A program made the translations under genes and the position numbers. From Phoronis australis (Eukaryota > Animalia > Phoronida): DNA of 64,000 bases. The DNA lies in NCBI GenBank assembly GCA_002633005.1, contig NMRA01000894.1:36522-100521 (forward strand), written 5' to 3'. The notes beneath the pieces are model-generated. The model saw nothing but the letters and a program-made list of their open reading frames with translations. It had not been told where the DNA came from and made no database searches. Below, piece after piece: positions 1-63,400 of the stretch (position 1 is its first letter; every line of letters begins with the position of its first letter).

Positions 1-1333
1 TGTTGCTATGCTCACACTTGGTTGATAGCATTGTAAAAGTCTTGGTCTACACCAATTTTTTTATTAAAAATGCTCACTACAGAAGGCTGTTTTGTAAACT
101 TAGATATAAAAACCTTGGTCTATGGATTTTTTTGTAAAAAAATCTGTGTACTTGGGTGGATTGCTGGGGGTGGGGGGTTATGCGTCGGAACTATGGACGC
201 CCTGGAATATTGGGAACGTCATTTTGGACACCCTATTTCCGAAATCCTGGATAAAGCCCTGGCTGTACCCTCTGCCCCTTGCATACCTCACAAGCAAAGA
301 AAACATGAGCATTTGTGTGTGCAAACACAGAAGCGAAATATTATTAAACTTATGTCTAAATTTCTCGTTGTTTAGGAATAGACTGCATTTTGATCTGTAA
401 AGGATTATTTCGTGGTTGTGAGGAAGTTGGAACGATGTCAATGGGACTGGCAACTCTTGAGTAGTAGTATGCATTTTAAAGTTATTTTTTAGAGTGACGA
501 TTGAAGTGCTTTCTTTTATTTTGGATAGTAAAGAATTCCAGTTGTCATTACAAGTTAATATGGTAGATTTGCTGAAGGCTTGGCTGTGGGAAGATGGAAT
601 AGTGTGCATATTACTTTGCCGCAGTCCTGGTCTCGTGTTAGGTCTTTTGTAGGAGTCAAAGACGATTTTGTTTGAGTAATTGTTTATGTTGGTTAAGACT
701 ATGAATGTATACATGGACAAGTGGAGTTTACGACGGGTTGCTAGTTTGGTCCATTTGAGATTGTTTAGAACCTTGATTGTGTTGGATCCTTTGTATGTCC
801 CTGTTATGGCTAAAGCTGCTTGGTATTGTAGTCTTTATAATTGAAGAAGTATGCCAGCGTTTGCCGATTGGTAGATTATGTCACAGTAATCTAGATGTGG
901 AAGAACAAAAGACTTGAACAGAGTTTCAAGATGCATGGAGTTGAGATGACGAGAGACAATTCTAATTGGATTGTTTAATTTTTGTACTTTGTGAACGAGT
1001 TTGCGACAGTGATGAGTAAATGTAAGCTTATGGTCGAATAGCAAGCCAAGGTGTTTGTGCGTGAACTTGTTGGGGATAACTTCCCCATTGAGTGATAATT
1101 CCAGCACTGGATTTGTTTGGAATTGAGTATTATTAGACTTAGAAAATATAAAATATAAGATCAACACTTTTTTTCAGGTTTAAATTTTATCTTCCATTTG
1201 CAAGACCAGTCATAGGGTTTGTTTAGGTCAGTTTGCAATTGTAAGGAGTCATGGGGATTCTCTTTTGAGAATGGGAAGAAAATTGCAGCGTCATCAGCAT
1301 GAAAGAATGTTTTAGAGTTTATTGTGTCTGGAG

Positions 1334-1729
1334 CTTACTTTAAACACTTGATGGAACTGTGCTCAACCGCCATCTTCAGTTGGTCTCCTACTGTCCTTAA
1401 TGGTTTCGTCCCTAAACCAAGACCATCTCTAGTAGGCAGGACAACAGAGTTGATCACGCTCTGTCTGACGGTTGTTGGTGTTGTTGCTGTTGGTATTTCA
1501 TCCAAATCCAACAAGATGCCTGTTCAGCTTCAGTGGCTACGTCGCATAGCAGAGCCTTCTTTCCTGACATGGAGACGCCAAGGCACCTCGCCATGGTAAT
1601 GACCGAACTGGCCCGAAAACCCCGGCAGCCGACCTCCACAGGAAAACTCCAACATCTCCAGCCGTTAACATGACAGTCATTCCTAAGGTCTGCATATTTC
1701 AAGTTCTTTCGCTCGTGTGCCTCTTCCTC
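1334..1729 (-). mobile_element. 3' end of an RLE-type (HERO-like) non-LTR retrotransposon nested inside the LINE RT
   Basis: 'EEAHERKNLKYADL..GWRCWSFPVEVGCRGF..AEQASCWIW' matches the C-terminal restriction-like endonuclease signature of HERO/R2-group LINEs. Stop TGA at 1456-1454 is followed by a ~120-nt 3' UTR. The host RT reads YISD | insert | PDTINSKTFFHADD. Confidence 0.85.
1368..1443 (-). ncRNA. Candidate permuted/pseudoknotted hammerhead-like ribozyme in the HERO-type 3' UTR
   Basis: Minus-strand RNA: AUGGUC^UUGGUUU-AGGGAC-GAAA-CCAU-UAAGGACAGUAGG-AGACCAA-CUGAAGA-U-G. All hammerhead core nucleotides are present, stem III is AUGGU/ACCAU, stem I is UUGGUUU/AGACCAA, and stem II is minimal. 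Activity is untested. Confidence 0.55.
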
Positions 1730-4683
1730 ATCACTGATGTACAATAAAAAGAGTAAGGGGCCTAGTACGCTATCCTGTGGTACTCCACCATTTACAAAAC
1801 CTGGCGTTGATGAGCGAGATAAGACACCCTCTATTAGGACTTTGTAAGTTTGACATTCCAGATATGATTTTAAAAGTGAGAAGAGAGTTCTGGAAAAACC
1901 GTAAGATTGTAATTTATGTAGAAACAGATCATGGGGAACGGTACAAAAGCCGACGCAATGTCTAAGAATACGGATCTCACGTTGTATCCTTGCTCAAACT
2001 GGAGGTGGATTTCATGTACAATTTCTGTAAGTTGTGACACAGTGCTGTTACCAGGCATGAATCTGAATTGGCGACGATATATGAGGTTTTGTGAAGAGAT
2101 GTGGTCAAACATGTGTTGAGAAATTATTTTTTCTAAAATTTTGGATAGGGTGTTAAGTAGACCTATGGGGCGATAGTTGGCAATGTCTGTTTTGAAGTTC
2201 TTTTTGTGTATTGGTATCATAACACCAAGTTTTCAGTTCAAAGGAAATTTTCCAGATTGTAGTATTTTGTTGTATAATGTTGTCAAAGGAGCTGTAAGCT
2301 CTCTTGCTATTATCTTAATCATTTTATTGGTTATGAGATTGGTACCGTTGTTTTTGTTTTCGACAATATTTTCTAGTAGTTTTCGGACTTCAGAAGGTTG
2401 GTCTTGTATGTCAGAGAGATGTTCTAATGTTCTGTTTGGGAATTTGGGAAAGCTTGTTGTTGGTGCAACGTGATTCTTGGCCGTGAAGTATTCTAAAAAC
2501 AACTTTCTTTTTCAGCTTTGAATGATGCCTGAGTGTTGGATTCCTTTGAGTGGATGGTGGGGTATGAAGATTGCTTTACATGTCCTCAAATTTTGTTTAT
2601 TATATCCCAATATTCCTTTGAATTTTTGGAGACATTGTTGATGTTGGAGATAATTTTCATCTTATAGTCTTGTTTCGTCTTTTTGTTTAGTTCTTCCATA
2701 GTGAGATTCAATAATACATGTACACATCGTTGTGTACAATGGAGCACCCAGGACAGATTTAATGAAAAACCGTTTGTAATCATAAACTTACGTATTAAGC
2801 GCGATGACACTGTTACATCTATGCAGCAGTATGACAATAATAGAGGATGAACAAGAACTAGTTACAAAGACTGTGAACATGTGGACAGTAGCACCCATAA
2901 CTTGTAGTGCAGTGGTGAGGTATTGCACCAGTGTTCAATTTTTGGCTCAAAAGAAAGGCAAAATTGCCATGTAAGTCCGTAAAAGACATAGTAGCTATTG
3001 TTATTCTGTTATTGGTTGTAAAAATAGAACTTAGCAGTGCTATCGGAAAGCAAGGTTTGTTTGTAAACAGTCGTGTCCTTTACTGAGGTGCAATGAATGG
3101 TTTGTAATCATTTGGGTGTGCCCGCGTAACATCATGTACAAAGTATGCATGTATTTTCTCTTGACAAAACACCAGCAAAATGTGACAAAACAATGGCAAT
3201 AATTGCCATGAAGCTGAGTACCAACTTTGGCAGTGACAGGCCCTAACTGAAGTATATATGCGATGGATGGCAAAGGGAGTGAAATTAAGTCGACAGACTG
3301 ACACCCAGGCCATTAAGCAGACAGACTGACGTCACCAAGGCTAAACACCAGTATAAAACTGGCCAGCCTACCCCCAGCATCCGCGAAAAAATGGACCGCC
3401 GGGACACGAATAAAAATAACACTTTGAATCTACATAAAGACGCGGTGCACTATCTGGCACAAAGTTGGTGCCAAAATGGGTGCAACGAAAGTCTGTAGTG
3501 AAACGGAAGCGACTGAGTTCAAGTGAATTTTCCGTTTTATGTTATAGATAGCCCGAGTTTCATCTCAACAGGATATTGACAGCGTCTCAGCCTGGCGTGA
3601 TACAAATAAATCACTATTAATGGCTTCCAAAGGCAAAACCCAAATGGGACGTCGTGTTCAATTCAGCAAAACTTGTCTCTTGAAAGGAAAAGTTGCTACC
3701 GAGATATGCTGGTACAGAGCATTTGTATACAGGGAAAGTTATGAACCACTGTTCATCAGCATGCATTGATCAGGTTCATCGGCGTTTACTCCGCAGCTGT
3801 AATGGTAAAATTAGAGGTAAGTAGGCGCCTAAAGCCCATCATATCACCGTGAGCACTGAATTTCAAAGTGCATAGAACTCGTACAACCTGGCTCACAAAC
3901 ATGTAGGCTTATTTTTGACTCACGAGTGGGTATTTACAAAGAGTCTGCAGTGGCGGATCTTGGTCGGAGAAAGAGGGTCAAACCACACCTATTTGAAGCC
4001 AAAGGTCCGCATGCATTTCAAGTGGTCTCTGAAAGGTGCCCATGCATACAGGACAATAGGAGTGTCGGGGCCTTTGCCAACCCCTTTATCCACCTATGGT
4101 ACATGTGACACCATAATATGGCACAATAACTGATTTCTTATCTTGAATTAATAAAAATTCCATTACTCCACGAGCATATGCCTGGTGATAATGCACGCGG
4201 AAATGTTCGACAACAAATGCTGTCAGCATAGCGCATTGATGCAGTAAGGTATCGTATCGAGACTACGAAGAATTGTTCTTTCTCCCAATACCATTCACGG
4301 TGTCCTGTTTCGGTGACTTCGTAAGAAATTCGCAGTCAAAGCACAAAAATGTTCACAAAAAACCGACACACTTTTATCTTGGACCACTCGAGGTCAAGGA
4401 CGGTACAGAAATTGCTGATGAGTTACGGAAGTACTCAATAGTTTTTCTACTGGCGGCTAAGTGTACAGTTATCGACATCGTGACTTTACGCGACAAACCG
4501 GCAATTTCCGTACCGTCCTTGACCTCAAGCGGTCCAAGATAAAAGTGAAGCACCCGTGGAATTTCAAGTCCGAAGTGTCATACCTTGTAGTATTATATAT
4601 AGTGTATTGGGGACGATCAGAAGCTGAGGACGCCTATGCTATATACCGTCACATGTCATATGATCATTCATACGCATACGATA

Positions 4684-5524
4684 CGGTGCGTAGACTACAG
4701 TCAAGTGACCTAATTATCGGACGTTTTGGCACATTTTGCATTATATTTAATTGAAAATCACTACGGACTGTTGTAAATTCTTTGCTGAAATAAAGACTTA
4801 CCTTTATAGAATTGTTGTGTTACTATATCTTGTCACCGAAAGCCACATTTATGTTCCGACTGAACTTTAAAAAACACAACAAGCAAACCTTCGGAGAACC
4901 TAAATATCGGAAACCATGTTTCCCCATACGCCACACCGCGGAAAACTGACTAACCACGTAATGGCCGCGGGCACCTTGTAGCCAAATTTCAGCTCGAGTG
5001 TTTTCACATCTATGCTGCTAGAACACAGGTCCATTCGCAACAAACTTATCCATCAAATGAAATCTGATGACGGCGCCAAGTCATTTCGATGAATTAGCGC
5101 AGACGACTAAAGCACGTGCAAACAGACTGCAGTTTTTAGTATCACTTTGGCTTCTTGATATTACACCCGCACGTGCGCGGTCGGGGTTTGACTTGAGTTT
5201 AAAAACAAACGAAAAAATGGAACAGTGACATATTGTCAGTTCAATGAGAAAGTTTCATTGTGGAAAAAGATTTTATTTTCAACTTTTATAATCGATTTAT
5301 TCGATCGTCCATTTTAGGCCGACTTGGGGGTCTAAATTGCACCCTCTCTCGGTGAAATCAAAACGAGGCAACGCTGTAAAAAACGAGACGGTGCCGGACA
5401 TTGAATGCATTACAACGGAACAACAATTGGTGTCATTTAATTCTCAGATTATGCTTCAAGTAAGATTTTTTGAAATGTCCGATATTTAGGTTCCGTCCGA
5501 TAATTAGGTACACTATGTGTACCG
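4684..5524. mobile_element. MITE, Tc1/mariner(pogo)-like
   Basis: TA-flanked CGGT...ACCG ends with inverted ACCTAATTATCGGACG near both termini; a further internal inverted copy (~4893-4910 vs ~5478-5497). Confidence 0.6.
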
Positions 5525-5932
5525 TAGATGCTACGTCAAAATGAAAAAAGGTGGTTGCTGTGGTTGGATGCAACTACCTGCGCTTAATTCCCACTATACC
5601 GTAACTTACGGTGGGTAGGCGCTACATTGAAAAGCAAAAAGGTGGTTGGCTGCGTCTATGTGCGCTTGCGCCCCACTAAAGCACTGACTCTACCTTTCTA
5701 TCAGATCTATCCGCTCGTCTTTGCTAAGATGTCCCAGGGGAGTGCCAAATTGATTTTTACTTCCGGATGAAAAAATTTCACAGTGGATTTTTTTATCGAC
5801 AAATGATCAAAGAAGATGGAATTGAATCAGATCGTTGACCTTATTTAACAAATCACACATGATAAAATACAAAAGACAAACGTTTATAATTTTCGATGTC
5901 GATCAAGATGTGTATTATTATCCGCGCGCACA

Positions 5933-5941
5933 TCACATGAC
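5933..5941. promoter_or_regulatory. M-box/CLEAR-like (MITF/TFEB) motif upstream of CTNS
   Basis: TCACATGAC (reverse complement GTCATGTGA) ~720 bp upstream of the CTNS ATG. ETS motif ACTTCCGG at ~5759 and E-box CACGTGA at 6287-6293 are nearby. Motif match only. Confidence 0.3.
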
Positions 5942-6656
5942 CAGTCATCTGCTGATAGTAAACAAGGCGCGGGACGAGTAGATGAGGTGCTTCTTCAAAA
6001 TTGAGTCTGGAACCAACGCATCCTTCCTGTGTGGGACGTATATATTTTTAAAGCCAATTTGTTTCAGTAATAGTCAATGTGGACGGATTATGTGGAAGCA
6101 TTAGAACTGCAGTGCATAATGGTGTTATATCAAAACATAAAAAATCAAGGATCGCATCTTTACTCAAACTCGACAAAAACGAACTGATACTGTTTAGTGT
6201 CTAGTGATAGCCAGGGCCTCTTATGTCGAAGTGGTGACTGGATCTGATTACGTAATAAGTTATCCCTATCTACAATTGGATTAAACCACGTGATTCAGAT
6301 CCCCGGGACAGCCTACAGTTATCTGACTTTAGAAGCAGATAGTGGTTACAGAGATTAAGTGCTCTACAATCTACCCCCTCCCCCGTGGGATTTCTCTGAT
6401 CTGGATACTACTGTACAACTAGCCCTCCTCCACGATCTCGAGTCAAATCTCTGGATGAACTTGACCGAATGACCTGGCTTTTCAGTGACTGTGATTGTAT
6501 CTACAACAGAAGTTCACTCGGACTAATCATGCGTTACAGTATAACTGACAGTTTTATTTCTGGCTGATAAGAAGCTTGATTACTTGTTATAGTCAACAGG
6601 TCACGTTGTAGTGACAAGTTTTATAAATTGTGCCAGTTGAAGCAAATTATTGAGGG

Positions 6657-6759
6657 ATGGAGACAGTCGTGCTAAGTTTCAACAAAGCTGCTGCGTGTTT
6701 GTTGCTGCTTTTGACAACAGCATGCAATGTGGAGGTTCATTGTCTCGTCGATGAAGGAA
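6657..6759 (+). CDS. CTNS: CTNS coding exon 1 (signal peptide [23 protein letters not shown]..)
   Basis: ATG, hydrophobic signal peptide and donor GTACGT in phase 1, matching the next exon. Confidence 0.75.
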
Positions 6760-9700
6760 GTACGTTCTCTCCTGTTATCTGCCATGAAGTTCTTGTGCTT
6801 GAAAATTTTTAAACTTGCTGTAAACCTGTCTTCTCACTTTTGATGGGATCAGGCCACTTCAATATCTAGGGAAATCATACCCATTTCATTTTAAACAAGT
6901 GTTAAATTAGGATATTAAACCCTGTTTTGATGATTACAGCCAATCCTCATTCAGGCACTTCTAATGCATCATTGGCACCAGTCTTGAAAGATAAAAGCAG
7001 GAATCTACAAAAAATTATGCTATCTATGTCACACATTGAGTATTATGGTTCTTGGTGGCTGGTCTTTCTCCACAGTTGCCTTGCAATTCACTAAGAGCAT
7101 AGGCCACGCTTCCATTTTGCAGACGTTGAAATGGGTTCTTAAATTTTCCTTCCAACTTTTGAGGGTTGTCAAGAGTTATCAAGCATTATTTTGTTTCAGG
7201 GAATTGGATGGGAATGTCGTTTTTAACGTATTTTAGGACCAAATTGGGTTTGGTATCATTTAAGTAATGTTCAAATCAAAATAATCTTTGTATTTTTGTT
7301 AAATGGCTCAATGAAAATGAACATTATATAAGCCAAATGGTAGTTTATTAGGGTATGAGTTTGCCTGGGTTCATGTTGTTTGGTTTGGTCAGACTTGATT
7401 TAAATCAATGACCAGTGCTGTAAAACTGCTTACTCATGTTGCAAGTCACTTTGGCTTGAGAATTGAACCAACTTTTCATTTCTTGGCCTAAACCAACTTT
7501 TCATTTCTTGGCCTAAACCAACTTTTCATTTCTTGGCCTAAGACTCAAGGCATAAAATGATCCACCAGATCAAGCCGGCTTATTGAGGTGAAGGTGTCAA
7601 GCAGTTCTTCCAAAGATAAGAAATTAATTGGAGAAAGAGATCACATGTGGCCCAACTTTAGATTACTTGCTGGTGTTTGTCAGAAGGCAGGTTTTGAACT
7701 GTTTTAATTGTTGAAAATATTTTTCTAATTGAAATAGTTAAGTGTACTCAGCATTTAACCTGCTTAAAGTTCAACAATTTGCAATGCTTTTGTCAACTCG
7801 CAGTGATTTTGTGTTTGTTAGAAAGGATGTTTGTTACTCAAAAATGTGTTGGAGTCTCCCAACTACTGACCTTGAAATCTTTCTTGACAAAATACTATTA
7901 TGCTACTTATATAATGCGTGTTAAGCAGTCATCTATCATTGTTACAGATTCTACCAGAGCCAATACAACTGTACATTTTTCAACTTCAAGCATTGAACTT
8001 CAGCTTGGAAACTCGCAAAACCTAACCATAACACCAAGGTTTGTAATAGGATTTCATGGAAGACATTCTGAGAATGTAGCACACAACTGACAAAATTTCA
8101 GTATGAGGTAGGCCTACTCATTTTCATGCCCAGGTATTACATTGCTGTAGATTTTGAATGGGTGGATGGGACCCTTTATACTCTGTGTAATTATGTGTAC
8201 ATATTGAGATATATTTTAATTTTGAAGTAAATTTCATCTTAAAATTACTTAGTCCGAAAAGGTTATTGTATTTTTTATGTCAAATTTCAATGTTTATTTT
8301 TGCACTTTCCAAGGTTTCAATATTATTGGACTTAAATTTTCAAAATTTTTCTCGGTACAGACTCTAATTTTCATTTTACAAATGTACTTTTCTAATTTTA
8401 ACCTTCTATTAGTACTCTGAACTTTTTACAATTTGAAAGTCCTACACAGTAAGAATTGTGTTTTATAAAAATTATTGGATCTGCACAACTCAGTTACTGA
8501 GTGTGTTTGCATACGAAACTCATTGTCAGGCAGGAGTGTGCCTGAAGATTCATACCACTTGCGACAAAATGGATGCCATTTGAGGTCACTAAGCATACGA
8601 GACCATGTAATCTAACTCATGTTCAGTCTCAATGCTTTCAGTGTTGTCTGTGGCTACAATTGGACAGCTGCTCTGTGAAGTAAGCCCTCATCAGATTTCT
8701 TTCAGTTGTAATGAAATGAGCTAAGGATCATTTGTTGGTAGTCATTTTGTCAACACACTAGCTGCTTTCAGTGTGTCTATGTCTATGTCTACTATTGGAG
8801 AGCTGCTCTGTGGATTAAGCCCCATCAGATTTCTTTCTGTCAGTTGTAACGAAATGAACTAAAGATAATTTGCAGGTAGTCAATTTTACTAGTATGTATA
8901 GTCAAATTTTCAACAAATCATGATCAAAAAATGTAGTTTTCCTCTTCAGTCCCTCAAAACAACTACGAGGTTTAAGAAAATGCAATACTCTCAGCATGGT
9001 AGTTTCTAGTCAGCCTGGACACAAATATGAATGAAAAGCGTAATATATTTTTCTGTTTATTACGTTAAGACGTTAAGAATTTCATTTTCTGTACTCTGTT
9101 GCAGTTCACCTTTGGACAGAGATGCAGTTTTGATATTCAACTATCAAATCGACAAATCCATCGATCCGACCCAGGGGGCACATGTTGTCATTCGGCCACT
9201 AGAAAACATCACTATACCTGCCCTCTCAAGTCAGCCTGTGGTCGTATCCGTCAAGTCTAACAGTCCCGGTCATGTGACTATTGGTGTGAATTCGTCTTCC
9301 TCAGAACTTCACGAGTAAGCGAGAGGGAATTATTTTTTTTCCGTGCTTAGTGTAGAAACAAATGTCAGAGACCAGTTTTGTAGCCTTGTGACCATAAGTG
9401 ACAATTTATACACTCCTTGGTTATTCTGCTGGCATACAGCCTCACATTCACACGTTATACAGGCATCCAATCCATGCATGTGTGCGTACGTTGACTTAAT
9501 GTCAAATCAAGCTGAAAAGGACTACCATGACAAAACATCACAGGAACTACAACCACTTTTTGTTAGTCAGATCCAGCAATGTCGGCGGATTCACGCCATT
9601 GTCGTAGCCAATTGGGCTATGCATGTGTTTGGCACACTTGGCTTCGACGGAGGGACGCTTGCAATAAGTAATGATACACAGAAACTACGAAGGAGCTGAA

Positions 9701-62479: not shown

Positions 62480-63400
62480 CTTTCCGTATTTCAAGGTTAT
62501 CTTGTGCTTTTATTATGCAACCACCTATTGATATGTGTATGCATATTGCCAGTCTTCTCTGTCTGTGCATCCACTGATGCAATTCCTCCATTGCAGAATC
62601 TTTATGAGATTTGACAAATGTGTTCCTTGAAGATGACCACCAGGAATTGTTCACTGATCTGAGTACTGCTATGCCTCCTAGTGGCAATTTTATTTTTTTG
62701 TACTTGCGAAAGTTTTTGATGGATTTTCATAAAATTTCGCAAAAAGGTTTCAGTTCAGGAGACAATGAATTTGTGCCACCTTCTGTCCGTTTTTAAAATT
62801 TTCAAGTTTGTATTTGCCAATCCGATTGAAGGATCAATACGAAAATTTGCAGATGTGTGCCTGATGAGGTGAGGATGATGTTGATTTTCAGAAGGTTTGA
62901 TTTCGAAGGGGTTCCCTAGTGGAGATTTTTTTGTGTCTGTGGCTGTATTCCATTAACCCTATGCAAGAATTTTGTGTGAAACTTGGCATATGTTATTAGG
63001 AAATTGACAACAGATAATGACTAGTTTCCGAACAATCCAGATGATGGTAGCTTTTTTAGGTTTTCTCGTGTATTTTCATGATGGATTTCCATGAAACTTG
63101 GCAATTAGGTTTTTATTAAGGAGACAACAATGCCTTTCCATTTTCAGACAGATTTGACGTTTGCTGTGGGGCATAATGTTGATTTTTAAGTTTGGAGTCT
63201 GTTTTTAGTGTCAACCTCTATATCCACCAATCTACCAAAAATATTGTGAAAATTGCCAGATTTGTTTGTAATGAGAATGTGGCAGCTGACGTTAATGTTT
63301 GGACATGCTCGACTACGTTGTAGGTAATCCCTAGCGATTTTTTCCGCATGTATTGTCATTTTCTAAACCCTTTGAGGATCTTTGTATAATTTGGCAGAAT
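62480..63400 (+). mobile_element. Degenerate repeat related to the HINE at 18138-19368
   Basis: Shared CTAGTGGCAATTTTATTTTTT, GATTTTCATAAAA and GAAACTTGGCA motifs. Ends are approximate. Confidence 0.55.

Follow-up and report, generated by a model that had tools for sequence, protein, structure and literature searches.

The window, the whole 64,000-nt stretch of Phoronis australis DNA analysed in this study, contains a frameshifted reverse-transcriptase gene of a host LINE on the minus strand (Pfam RVT_1, E-values of 4e-11 and 1e-3), which is interrupted by an insertion: the part upstream of the insertion lies at 1730–2232, where the host frame halts at the residues YISD (1730), and the frame picks up again below 1334 (at or below 1333). 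The inserted segment of ~396 bp (1334–1729, minus strand) is the 5'-truncated 3' end of a HERO-clade non-LTR retrotransposon. Its boundaries were drawn from an empty-site joint and from mixed flanks; namely, reads from three same-species RNA runs contain the joint 1332→1730, and the element exits at 1334 into unrelated flanks in 16 contigs (X2) and 13 contigs (X4) of the same species, with an agreement of 0.45. Also, longer copies of the element run on upstream from 1727 into more of the ORF in reads of three RNA runs, and the 5' edge of the fragment (~1729) is uncertain by about 2 nt. The insertion in the window shows no target-site duplication. A TTC (element strand) next to the 3' end (1331–1334) is common to the flanks of many copies, which suggests a weak target preference. 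The host LINE, extending over 178–1333 and 1730 to ~2700 (minus strand), is a multi-copy element transcribed on both strands in the same-species RNA runs. Elsewhere in the window, an inverted repeat at 4369–4547, with arms of 62 nt that are 84% complementary and 55 nt apart, resembles a small MITE or palindromic repeat.

By translation, the fragment encodes the C-terminal ~91 codons of the HERO ORF (1454–1729, minus strand), a region from the endonuclease end with a VEVGCRGF motif and a stop codon at 1456–1454, and its peptide is 45% identical over 80 aa to the C-terminus of the full-length ORF in a related locus (L004). The relatives of the fragment carry the RT domain PF00078; single ORFs of 1100–1180 aa are found in L001, L004 (1180 aa) and others, and R2 proteins are the best solved relatives of this ORF. 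When compared by eye with part of the PMC7650587 supplement, the RT of L001 and L004 closely tracks HEROTn and HERO-1_BF and does not track the Utopia, R4 or R5 rows. We call the element HERO, therefore, from its single ORF, its R2-like best relatives and this resemblance of the RT to HEROTn and HERO-1_BF. The relatives have one ORF with RT and a C-terminal restriction-like endonuclease, as expected of the HERO clade, and the copy in the window is without RT; judged by its sequence, this copy is a truncated passenger with an intact hammerhead core.

This core had been recognised in the initial annotation, with its strands in a non-classical order and its place in the 3' UTR of a HERO-type element, and the assignment is correct in view of the motifs in place and of the ORFs of the relatives. 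On the minus strand, the 5' strand of stem III and the GUC triplet (1421–1427) are followed by the 1.x strand of stem I (1414–1420), with the predicted cut between 1421 and 1420. The next block (1399–1412) comprises the 11.x strand of stem II (1412–1408), GAAA (1407–1404) and the 3' strand of stem III (1404–1399), and a further block (1373–1386) comprises the 2.x strand of stem I (1386–1380) and the core segment CUGAAGA (1379–1373). The triplet with its cut, CGAAAC (1408–1403), CUGAAGA, a stem III of 6 bp (1427–1422/1404–1399) and a stem I of 7 bp (1420–1414/1386–1380) are thus all present as originally described, and the core nucleotides C3, U4, G5, A6, N7, G8 and A9, G12, A13, A14 and A15.1, and U16.1 and H17 are complete in the window. 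An arrangement in which the cleavage strand comes first, the GAAA strand next and the CUGANGA strand last had been thought undescribed, but it is known as type SGC, which was reported from metatranscriptomes only and which cleaves in vitro with four required helices, according to the part of Eckert et al. (2023; PMC10085705) drawn on here.

A relaxed S-G-C descriptor matched in only one of 300 dinucleotide-shuffled 64-kb windows, and in none of the 300 when a stem I of at least 7 bp was required; the motif in the window is more than chance. The same descriptor gives a second, weak match on the plus strand (62808–62867) with AT-rich stems of 5 and 4 bp, which is missed by the family models and is probably due to chance. 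No second copy of the motif was found within the 64-kb window with either the pattern or the family models. Rfam hammerhead models gave no match at E ≤ 5 in positions 1–7000 of the window and none in eight relative loci.

Relatives were collected by a scan with the C-terminal peptide, and the best 80 (79 loci) of 166 confirmed metagenome stretches together with two genome contigs provided 82 ORF ends in 81 loci that were examined for the motif. A strict pattern found the motif at 53 ORF ends, and 13 more were found only by a profile, being mutated or partial; 66 of the 82 related 3' ends among these best 80 stretches and two contigs hence carry the motif, and the core is conserved across the family as had been anticipated. 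As for the 16 ends without the motif, eight contigs were too short and eight lacked the core. Among the latter, L042 retains the 5' half, L062 is decayed, L018 is unexplained and the contig of L051 begins with the end of a motif, while the remaining four (L072, L073, L075 and L077), which represent one HERO-like family, have no hammerhead trace in 1.9–3.5 kb downstream of the ORF. The motif is dispensable, therefore, and this family can serve as a natural control when asking if tandem arrays require the ribozyme. Two loci (L080 and L081) are HERO fragments on short contigs of two bacterial genome assemblies, probably contaminations from host animals. In viral contigs, no protein relatives of the HERO fragment were found; a degenerate DNA pattern gave 95 matches there; in three of them stems I and III reach 9 of 11 pairs, and all three lack U16.1. 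The best score with the family model was 15.9 bits. These viral matches were taken as chance and used as a negative control.

With the window included, the 54 strict instances fall into 32 clusters at 80% identity, and the median protein identity among the 32 carriers is 44%. Conservation of the core was tallied in 65 profile hits aligned without the strict pattern, where badly decayed copies drop out since the profile was made from motif-bearing rows. In this tally, A13 and A14 are found in 65/65, A15.1 and G16.2 in 64/65, U16.1 in 63/65 and G12 in 62/65 hits, and G8 and A9 are invariant where covered (60/60). Position 17 is C in 28, U in 20 and A in 16 hits and is never G (0/64), while N7 varies freely (U in 34, C in 11, A in 9 and G in 6). 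In a quick tree, in which the branch of the window copy is long, position 17 switches among A, C and U on many branches. G17 was seen in one minor, multiply mutated copy of the same species (one contig with a depth of 7.6 out of 294; nine reads, X8). The pair C3–G8 is CG in 58 of the 65 hits, U3–A8 in L013, L016 and L034, and U3·G8 in L038 and L040. The three U3–A8 loci belong to one lineage and probably go back to one event; U3–A8 is a natural covariation of active hammerheads, according to part of PMC3088659.

The pairing originally proposed around this core, on the other hand, is only partly supported by the relatives. For this comparison, 32 sequences were aligned with MAFFT without structure. 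Near-duplicates were omitted, as were L010, L057 and L059 (truncated), L015 (with its deletion) and the two variant loci L041 and L068. Stems I and III and the CCUAC/GUAGG helix, here called helix b (1431–1436 with 1387–1392), covary as expected, but the other extra helix proposed initially, UGUCCU/AGGACA, is paired in 37.7% across the 32 relatives, and a stem II formed with the bases after CUGAAGA in 53.1%. The latter two were rejected, as they are together paired in 44.7% against 41.9% in shuffled alignments (23/500). Stem II had been called poor in the window copy because the wrong partner was chosen: GGGAC (1412–1408) pairs with GUCCU (1442–1438), the 10.x strand with G10.1 at 1442, which lies upstream of the cleavage site and is paired in 90.6% of the family with two-sided changes in four of the five pairs. 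Indeed, in 47 of the 51 complete instances at least four of five pairs can form between the strand before GAAA and one located ~20 nt to the 5' side of the cleavage site, while a partner after CUGANGA allows this in only 10 of the 51. The pair G10.1–C11.1 is GC in 27, GU in two and other in three of the 32 sequences. A pairing of GGGAC with a segment of the 3' tail was also considered and was dropped once the relatives revealed the upstream partner.

The bases right after A9 then pair with a strand far upstream. The resulting helix IV (1466–1474 with 1372–1364) closes the whole domain; it has 9 of 9 bp in the window, is paired in 77.9% of the alignment and has two-sided changes in all nine pairs. 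What had been read as an extra nucleotide between A9 and G10.1 is the U that forms the first base of this helix, and the motif, put originally at 1368–1443, spans 1364–1474. Hairpin V (1443–1465; 7 bp, 1465–1459/1449–1443) fills the gap between the 5' strand of helix IV and G10.1, with a self-complementary hexamer (1456–1451) and the stop codon in its loop. In many families (1454–1474 in the window; L014, L011 and L004), the last codons and the stop lie inside helix IV and hairpin V, where a translating ribosome could unfold the domain. In other families the domain is found far downstream, at a distance from the VEVGCRGF motif that reaches about 790 nt. Downstream of the domain, the 3' tail (1334–1363) has a terminal hairpin (1363–1343) in the predicted fold before the end of the element at 1334 given by the reads and contig flanks.

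Pairing across the 32 sequences is 77.9% in helix IV, 76.9% in hairpin V (62.5% in its two inner pairs), 90.6% in stem II, 92.7% in helix b, 92.4% in stem III and 98.1% in the first five pairs of stem I, all five of which have two-sided changes; stems I, II and III accordingly close at the core, with G10.1–C11.1 and A15.1–U16.1 and with covariation. As a whole, this six-helix structure is paired in 86.0% of 1170 cells against 59.8 ± 1.1% in shuffled alignments (0/500), has two-sided changes in 324 cells against 105.8 (0/500) and gives a covariation score of 0.657 against 0.205 (0/500), where the shuffles ignore relatedness and the structure was derived from the same sequences on which it was scored. 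The number of pairs with a two-sided change, 33 against 30.2, did not beat the shuffles (42/500), and slid controls were paired in 33–47%. Stem II diverges among families in the forms GUCCU/GGGAC, GGCAC/GUGCC, GUUGA/UCAAC and GAUGA/UCAUC. Common variants among same-species copies at 1438, 1370 and 1464 keep or improve pairs; for example, the family majority at 1438 converts U·G to C–G in stem II, and a variant at 1370, with about half of the depth, converts G·U to A–U in helix IV. Even a pseudoknot-free fold of the window still picks helix IV (pairing probability of 0.81–1.0), hairpin V and the upstream stem II (about 0.74), with helices b and III at 0.13–0.23 and no weight on stem I; the z-score of this nested-only fold (−1.0) is uninformative for a double pseudoknot.

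Along the minus strand, the order is thus helix IV, hairpin V, stem II (10.x), helix b, stem III with NUH, stem I, stem II (11.x) with GAAA and stem III, helix b, stem I with CUGANGA, and helix IV. The sequence comparison shows a five-helix junction (I, IV, V, II and III) with six covarying helices; that is, a circular permutation of type SGC that is opened between A9 and G10.1 inside "block C" and bridged by helix IV and hairpin V. While the core, strand order and setting were interpreted rightly at the outset, helix IV, hairpin V and the kink-turn signature described below had been missed, and the true topology is more unusual than the one first proposed. A9 is not joined to G10.1 directly or via 1–2 nt as in a three-way junction, and helices IV and V intervene. 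The hammerhead has a metal site made up of G10.1 N7 and the A9 phosphate. As the phosphate concerned is the one on the 5' side of A9, this site could survive the opening. The open link lowers the motif's claim to be a canonical hammerhead, but not its claim to work like one.

A kink-turn consensus consists of a C-stem, a 3-nt bulge and tandem G·A/A·G pairs. This signature is present between helix b and stem III in 46 of the 54 instances, with GA on one strand (2n and 1n; 1428–1429 in the window) and the 3-nt bulge plus a GA conserved in at least 90% on the other (1394–1398); the bulge is 3 nt in 45 of the 46, and −1b/−1n is C–G in 33 and U·G in eight. A variant subfamily (L041:1995–2119 and L068:895–1021) has the same core, upstream stem II and helix IV, and its helix b adjoins stem III with a one-sided bulge, not the kink-turn signature. 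From these sequences it is likely that the predicted kink-turn bends the III–b arm back and lets helix b act as a clamp on the distal ends of stems I and II. The kink would fold the far end of stem III back towards the I–II contact, and the distance between these two sites is a puzzle that Eckert et al. flagged for type SGC in the part of PMC10085705 drawn on here.

Type SGC (HRIMA-1 and its variants) otherwise shares many features with the HERO motif in that part of the same paper. Both have the S, G, C order of blocks with a short link from stem I to stem II, and in both a fourth helix joins the distal sides of stems I and II, formed from the bases 3' of 10.x and 5' of 2.x and making a double pseudoknot; helix b is the counterpart of this interaction helix. 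The sequence of a 10.x strand, one purine and then helix b is also as in the SGC-1 and SGC-2 templates, but shifted from the 3' to the 5' end (PMC10085705). In type SGC, however, 10.x comes directly after CUGANGA, whereas the HERO 10.x strand is found on the 5' side of the cleavage site, and helices IV and V separate G10.1 from A9; a 10.x directly 3' of CUGANGA, as in an intact block C, is paired in 53.1% of the HERO alignment against 90.6% for the upstream strand. Unlike type SGC as presented there, the HERO motif also has the kink-turn signature between stem III and helix b. According to the same part of PMC10085705, known hammerhead alignments have at most 1–2 inserted nt between A9 and G10.1, the six hammerhead permutations assume CUGAnGA and the adjacent stem strands to be inseparable, and the RNAMotif patterns ask for CUGAUGA(U)G, for a stem II on the 3' side and for no more than 15 nt of linker. 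Patterns with these requirements would not match the HERO motif.

Is this core a ribozyme? We consider it likely that the core is catalytically competent in active HERO families, as its letters are conserved, position 17 is never G in the profile hits and C3–G8 is compensated by U3–A8. RNA reads in both orientations cross 1420/1421 with neither a pile-up of ends nor a dip (about 10–25 reads per strand), but these come from three same-species runs of fragmented libraries with low depth on both strands and cannot reveal the ends of an in vivo cut. Indels reaching 8% of the reads were not found at the predicted cut in the same species. One X2 contig matches 1329–1420 and continues into unlike sequence, an 11-nt loss via microhomology removes the NUH triplet in L015, L020 ends at the triplet, and L001 begins 1 nt after it; these traces are single cases, none of which is frequent in this species. 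Alternatively, the motif might be a non-catalytic, hammerhead-shaped binding site of the HERO reverse transcriptase that is kept for its shape. R2 proteins bind structured UTRs, according to part of PMC6765202, and an element end 87 nt past the cut, RNA reads across that cut and a broken A9–G10.1 link would all be consistent with such a site. A scaffold, though, would not obviously bar only G at position 17 (0/64) yet allow A, C and U, nor would it obviously keep G12 and G8 or swap C3–G8 for U3–A8, and we regard this explanation as very unlikely.

As noted at the outset, the element retains the sequence 3' of the predicted cut: with mixed flanks before 1334, the 3' end of HERO is fixed there, 87 nt beyond the cut. 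Since the ends of the element include the 3' product, its templates would have to be uncut, religated or bridged. Given a competent core, religation would probably be favoured and release slow, because the 5' product would hold one strand each of helices IV, II, b and III and the products would stay paired via about 26 bp. Such clasped products would also suit a reversible nick or switch in a linear template, in which cutting and religation in place limit translation or mobilisation or license priming, and from which nicked templates yield very short 3' insertions. In X2, one copy breaks at 1420, and the summed contig depth is about 2400 at 1355–1368 against about 400 at 1418–1431. Summed contig depth is not copy number, however, and it rises again 5' of the cut (700–800 at 1439–1459); furthermore, tandem arrays would be left unexplained, and a nick of this kind appears quite unlikely to be the main role.

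Full-length HERO copies are often arranged head to tail. Among eight full-length 5' starts that were found upstream of an ORF, four are preceded by the motif and two by the 3' tail up to the start of the contig; of the remaining two, one follows ~30 nt of tail and then a unique flank, and the other a unique flank. Conversely, 12 of the 82 ORF ends (from the best 80 of the 166 stretches and the two genome contigs) lead into a 5' start. Copies of a repeat become collapsed in short-read contigs, however, and L013 is a loop contig. The 5' start itself is a conserved motif of ~100 nt with repeated short hairpin-like units (L001:94–198, L004:710–809 and L052:116–217), with 17 further hits on the plus strand. 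Template jumping by reverse transcriptase is known for R2, and jumping from end to end can also yield head-to-tail junctions. In one locus (L004:361 and L004:4085), two different HERO subfamilies stand head to tail; template jumping, or an insertion at the end of a copy already present, would account for this better than a single circular template.

This arrangement may be taken to mean that the ribozyme is active as a linear processing signal, where the upstream copy of a tandem cuts a read-through transcript and sets the 5' end of the next element without any circle, while the copy at the element's own 3' end stays uncut because a protein binds it or because ribosomes translate across helices IV and V. 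A precedent would be the 5' HDV-like ribozymes of R2 and L1Tc. Consistent with this, seven of the eight full-length 5' starts are at least partly preceded by a HERO 3' end, the start of L001 lies 1 nt past the cut site in the upstream copy, and in the window and several families hairpin V contains the stop codon, so that ribosomes would unwind helices IV and V. L004, L052 and L013, on the contrary, carry upstream sequence from 5' of the cut, the four helices between the products would hinder release, and in other families the domain lies far past the stop (up to about 790 nt after VEVGCRGF). Linear processing thus seems unlikely, if less so than the explanations above.

The products clasped by four helices and the head-to-tail copies, taken together, suggest instead cutting, rejoining and a circular template. 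We give about an even chance to a scheme in which HERO RNA cuts after NUH (1421 here) and rejoins, and in which units derived from tandems close into circles that are copied by the reverse transcriptase. A unit released from cut to cut from a tandem read-through transcript would have its ends brought together by the same helices and ligated into a circle. Reverse transcription would start internally at the junction of the tail and the 5' start and could run past its start, giving head-to-tail copies with 3' ends 87 nt beyond the cut. The whole route, from ligation through internally started reverse transcription to head-to-tail copies, is evenly balanced between true and false in our estimation; the circle step is no better than this, as template jumping and collapsed assemblies are other sources of tandem junctions. 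The circle model would nevertheless give a common explanation for the arrays, for the fixed 3' end and for selection on catalysis, and similar schemes are proposed for Penelope-like elements and retrozymes in parts of the literature cited below.

Of 34 well-formed copies of hairpin V, 28 have a self-complementary hexamer in the middle of the loop, in four different sequences, and there is a fifty-fifty prospect that this palindromic loop dimerises two RNAs. On a stronger version of this idea, the dimer is the active form: the loops kiss, strands are exchanged, each RNA cuts or ligates the other, and monomers are turned into multimers; dimeric hammerheads are on record for Penelope-like elements. 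The hexamers speak for it, yet six of the 34 hairpins are without the palindrome and keep the core, and the near-fixed linkers (23–25 nt from GAAA to C3 in 51 of the 54 instances) suit a compact monomer; an obligatory dimer is most improbable.

Returning to the circular route, its nearest parallels are Penelope-like elements and retrozymes, in which a hammerhead also lies in a tandemly arranged retroelement; a circular RNA template is proposed for them, and an internal start of reverse transcription has been shown for one Penelope-like element, according to parts of PMC6765202, bioRxiv 10.64898/2026.07.22.740005 and PMC11167929. Their hammerheads, as described in those parts, have classical cores of type I or III and sit in the terminal repeats of elements that either encode a GIY-YIG protein or are non-coding, in contrast to the differently wired HERO hammerhead in the 3' UTR of an autonomous LINE with RT and restriction-like endonuclease. 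Self-cleaving-type RNA in non-LTR retrotransposons is also represented by the 5' HDV-like ribozymes of R2, L1Tc, RTE and baggins, but these are of another class and at the opposite end, and their cut sets the 5' end of the element (PMC6765202, in part), whereas the predicted cut in HERO is 87 nt inside the 3' end. The discontinuous type III hammerhead in the 3' UTR of mammalian Clec2 shares the location and the separated strands, but its long insertion is in helix I outside the core, its topology is classical, and it belongs to a host gene (PMC6155905, in part).

In the literature searched, which included few subscription papers and no Repbase or Dfam notes, no hammerhead in HERO elements is described, nor did we find, again among few subscription papers, any hammerhead, natural or tested, in which helices separate A9 from G10.1. 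Weinberg et al. (2015) reportedly deal with "HHR variants containing additional helices", which could bear on this claim of novelty. On the comparative sequence data, the HERO motif belongs to the hammerhead class as a variant in structure, found in a genomic setting that is new for it, and its predicted fold is well supported.

In conclusion, we propose, as a tentative reading with somewhat less than an even chance of holding in full, that HERO LINEs replicate via circular RNA made by a ribozyme and that a seventh wiring of the hammerhead, with the core opened into a five-helix junction, a kink-turn as a brace and a kissing loop, would serve mainly as a ligase clasp for rolling reverse transcription and tandem arrays. 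A natural and widespread family that separates CUGANGA from stem II would break the block rule behind the six permutations, as this rule is given in part of PMC10085705. The A9–G10.1 link would be dispensable and would provide a protein-independent graft point inside a catalytic core. Such a family would also account for the failure of pattern searches to detect a hammerhead that may rank among the most abundant ones of animal genomes. Within the literature searched, it would be the first non-circularly permuted hammerhead in eukaryotic genomes. An R2-related LINE would thereby have a ribozyme at its 3' end, and HERO, should the circle model hold, would be an autonomous LINE with a viroid- or retrozyme-like circular template, which bears on the origin of tandem LINE arrays and on genome-writing tools of the R2 family.
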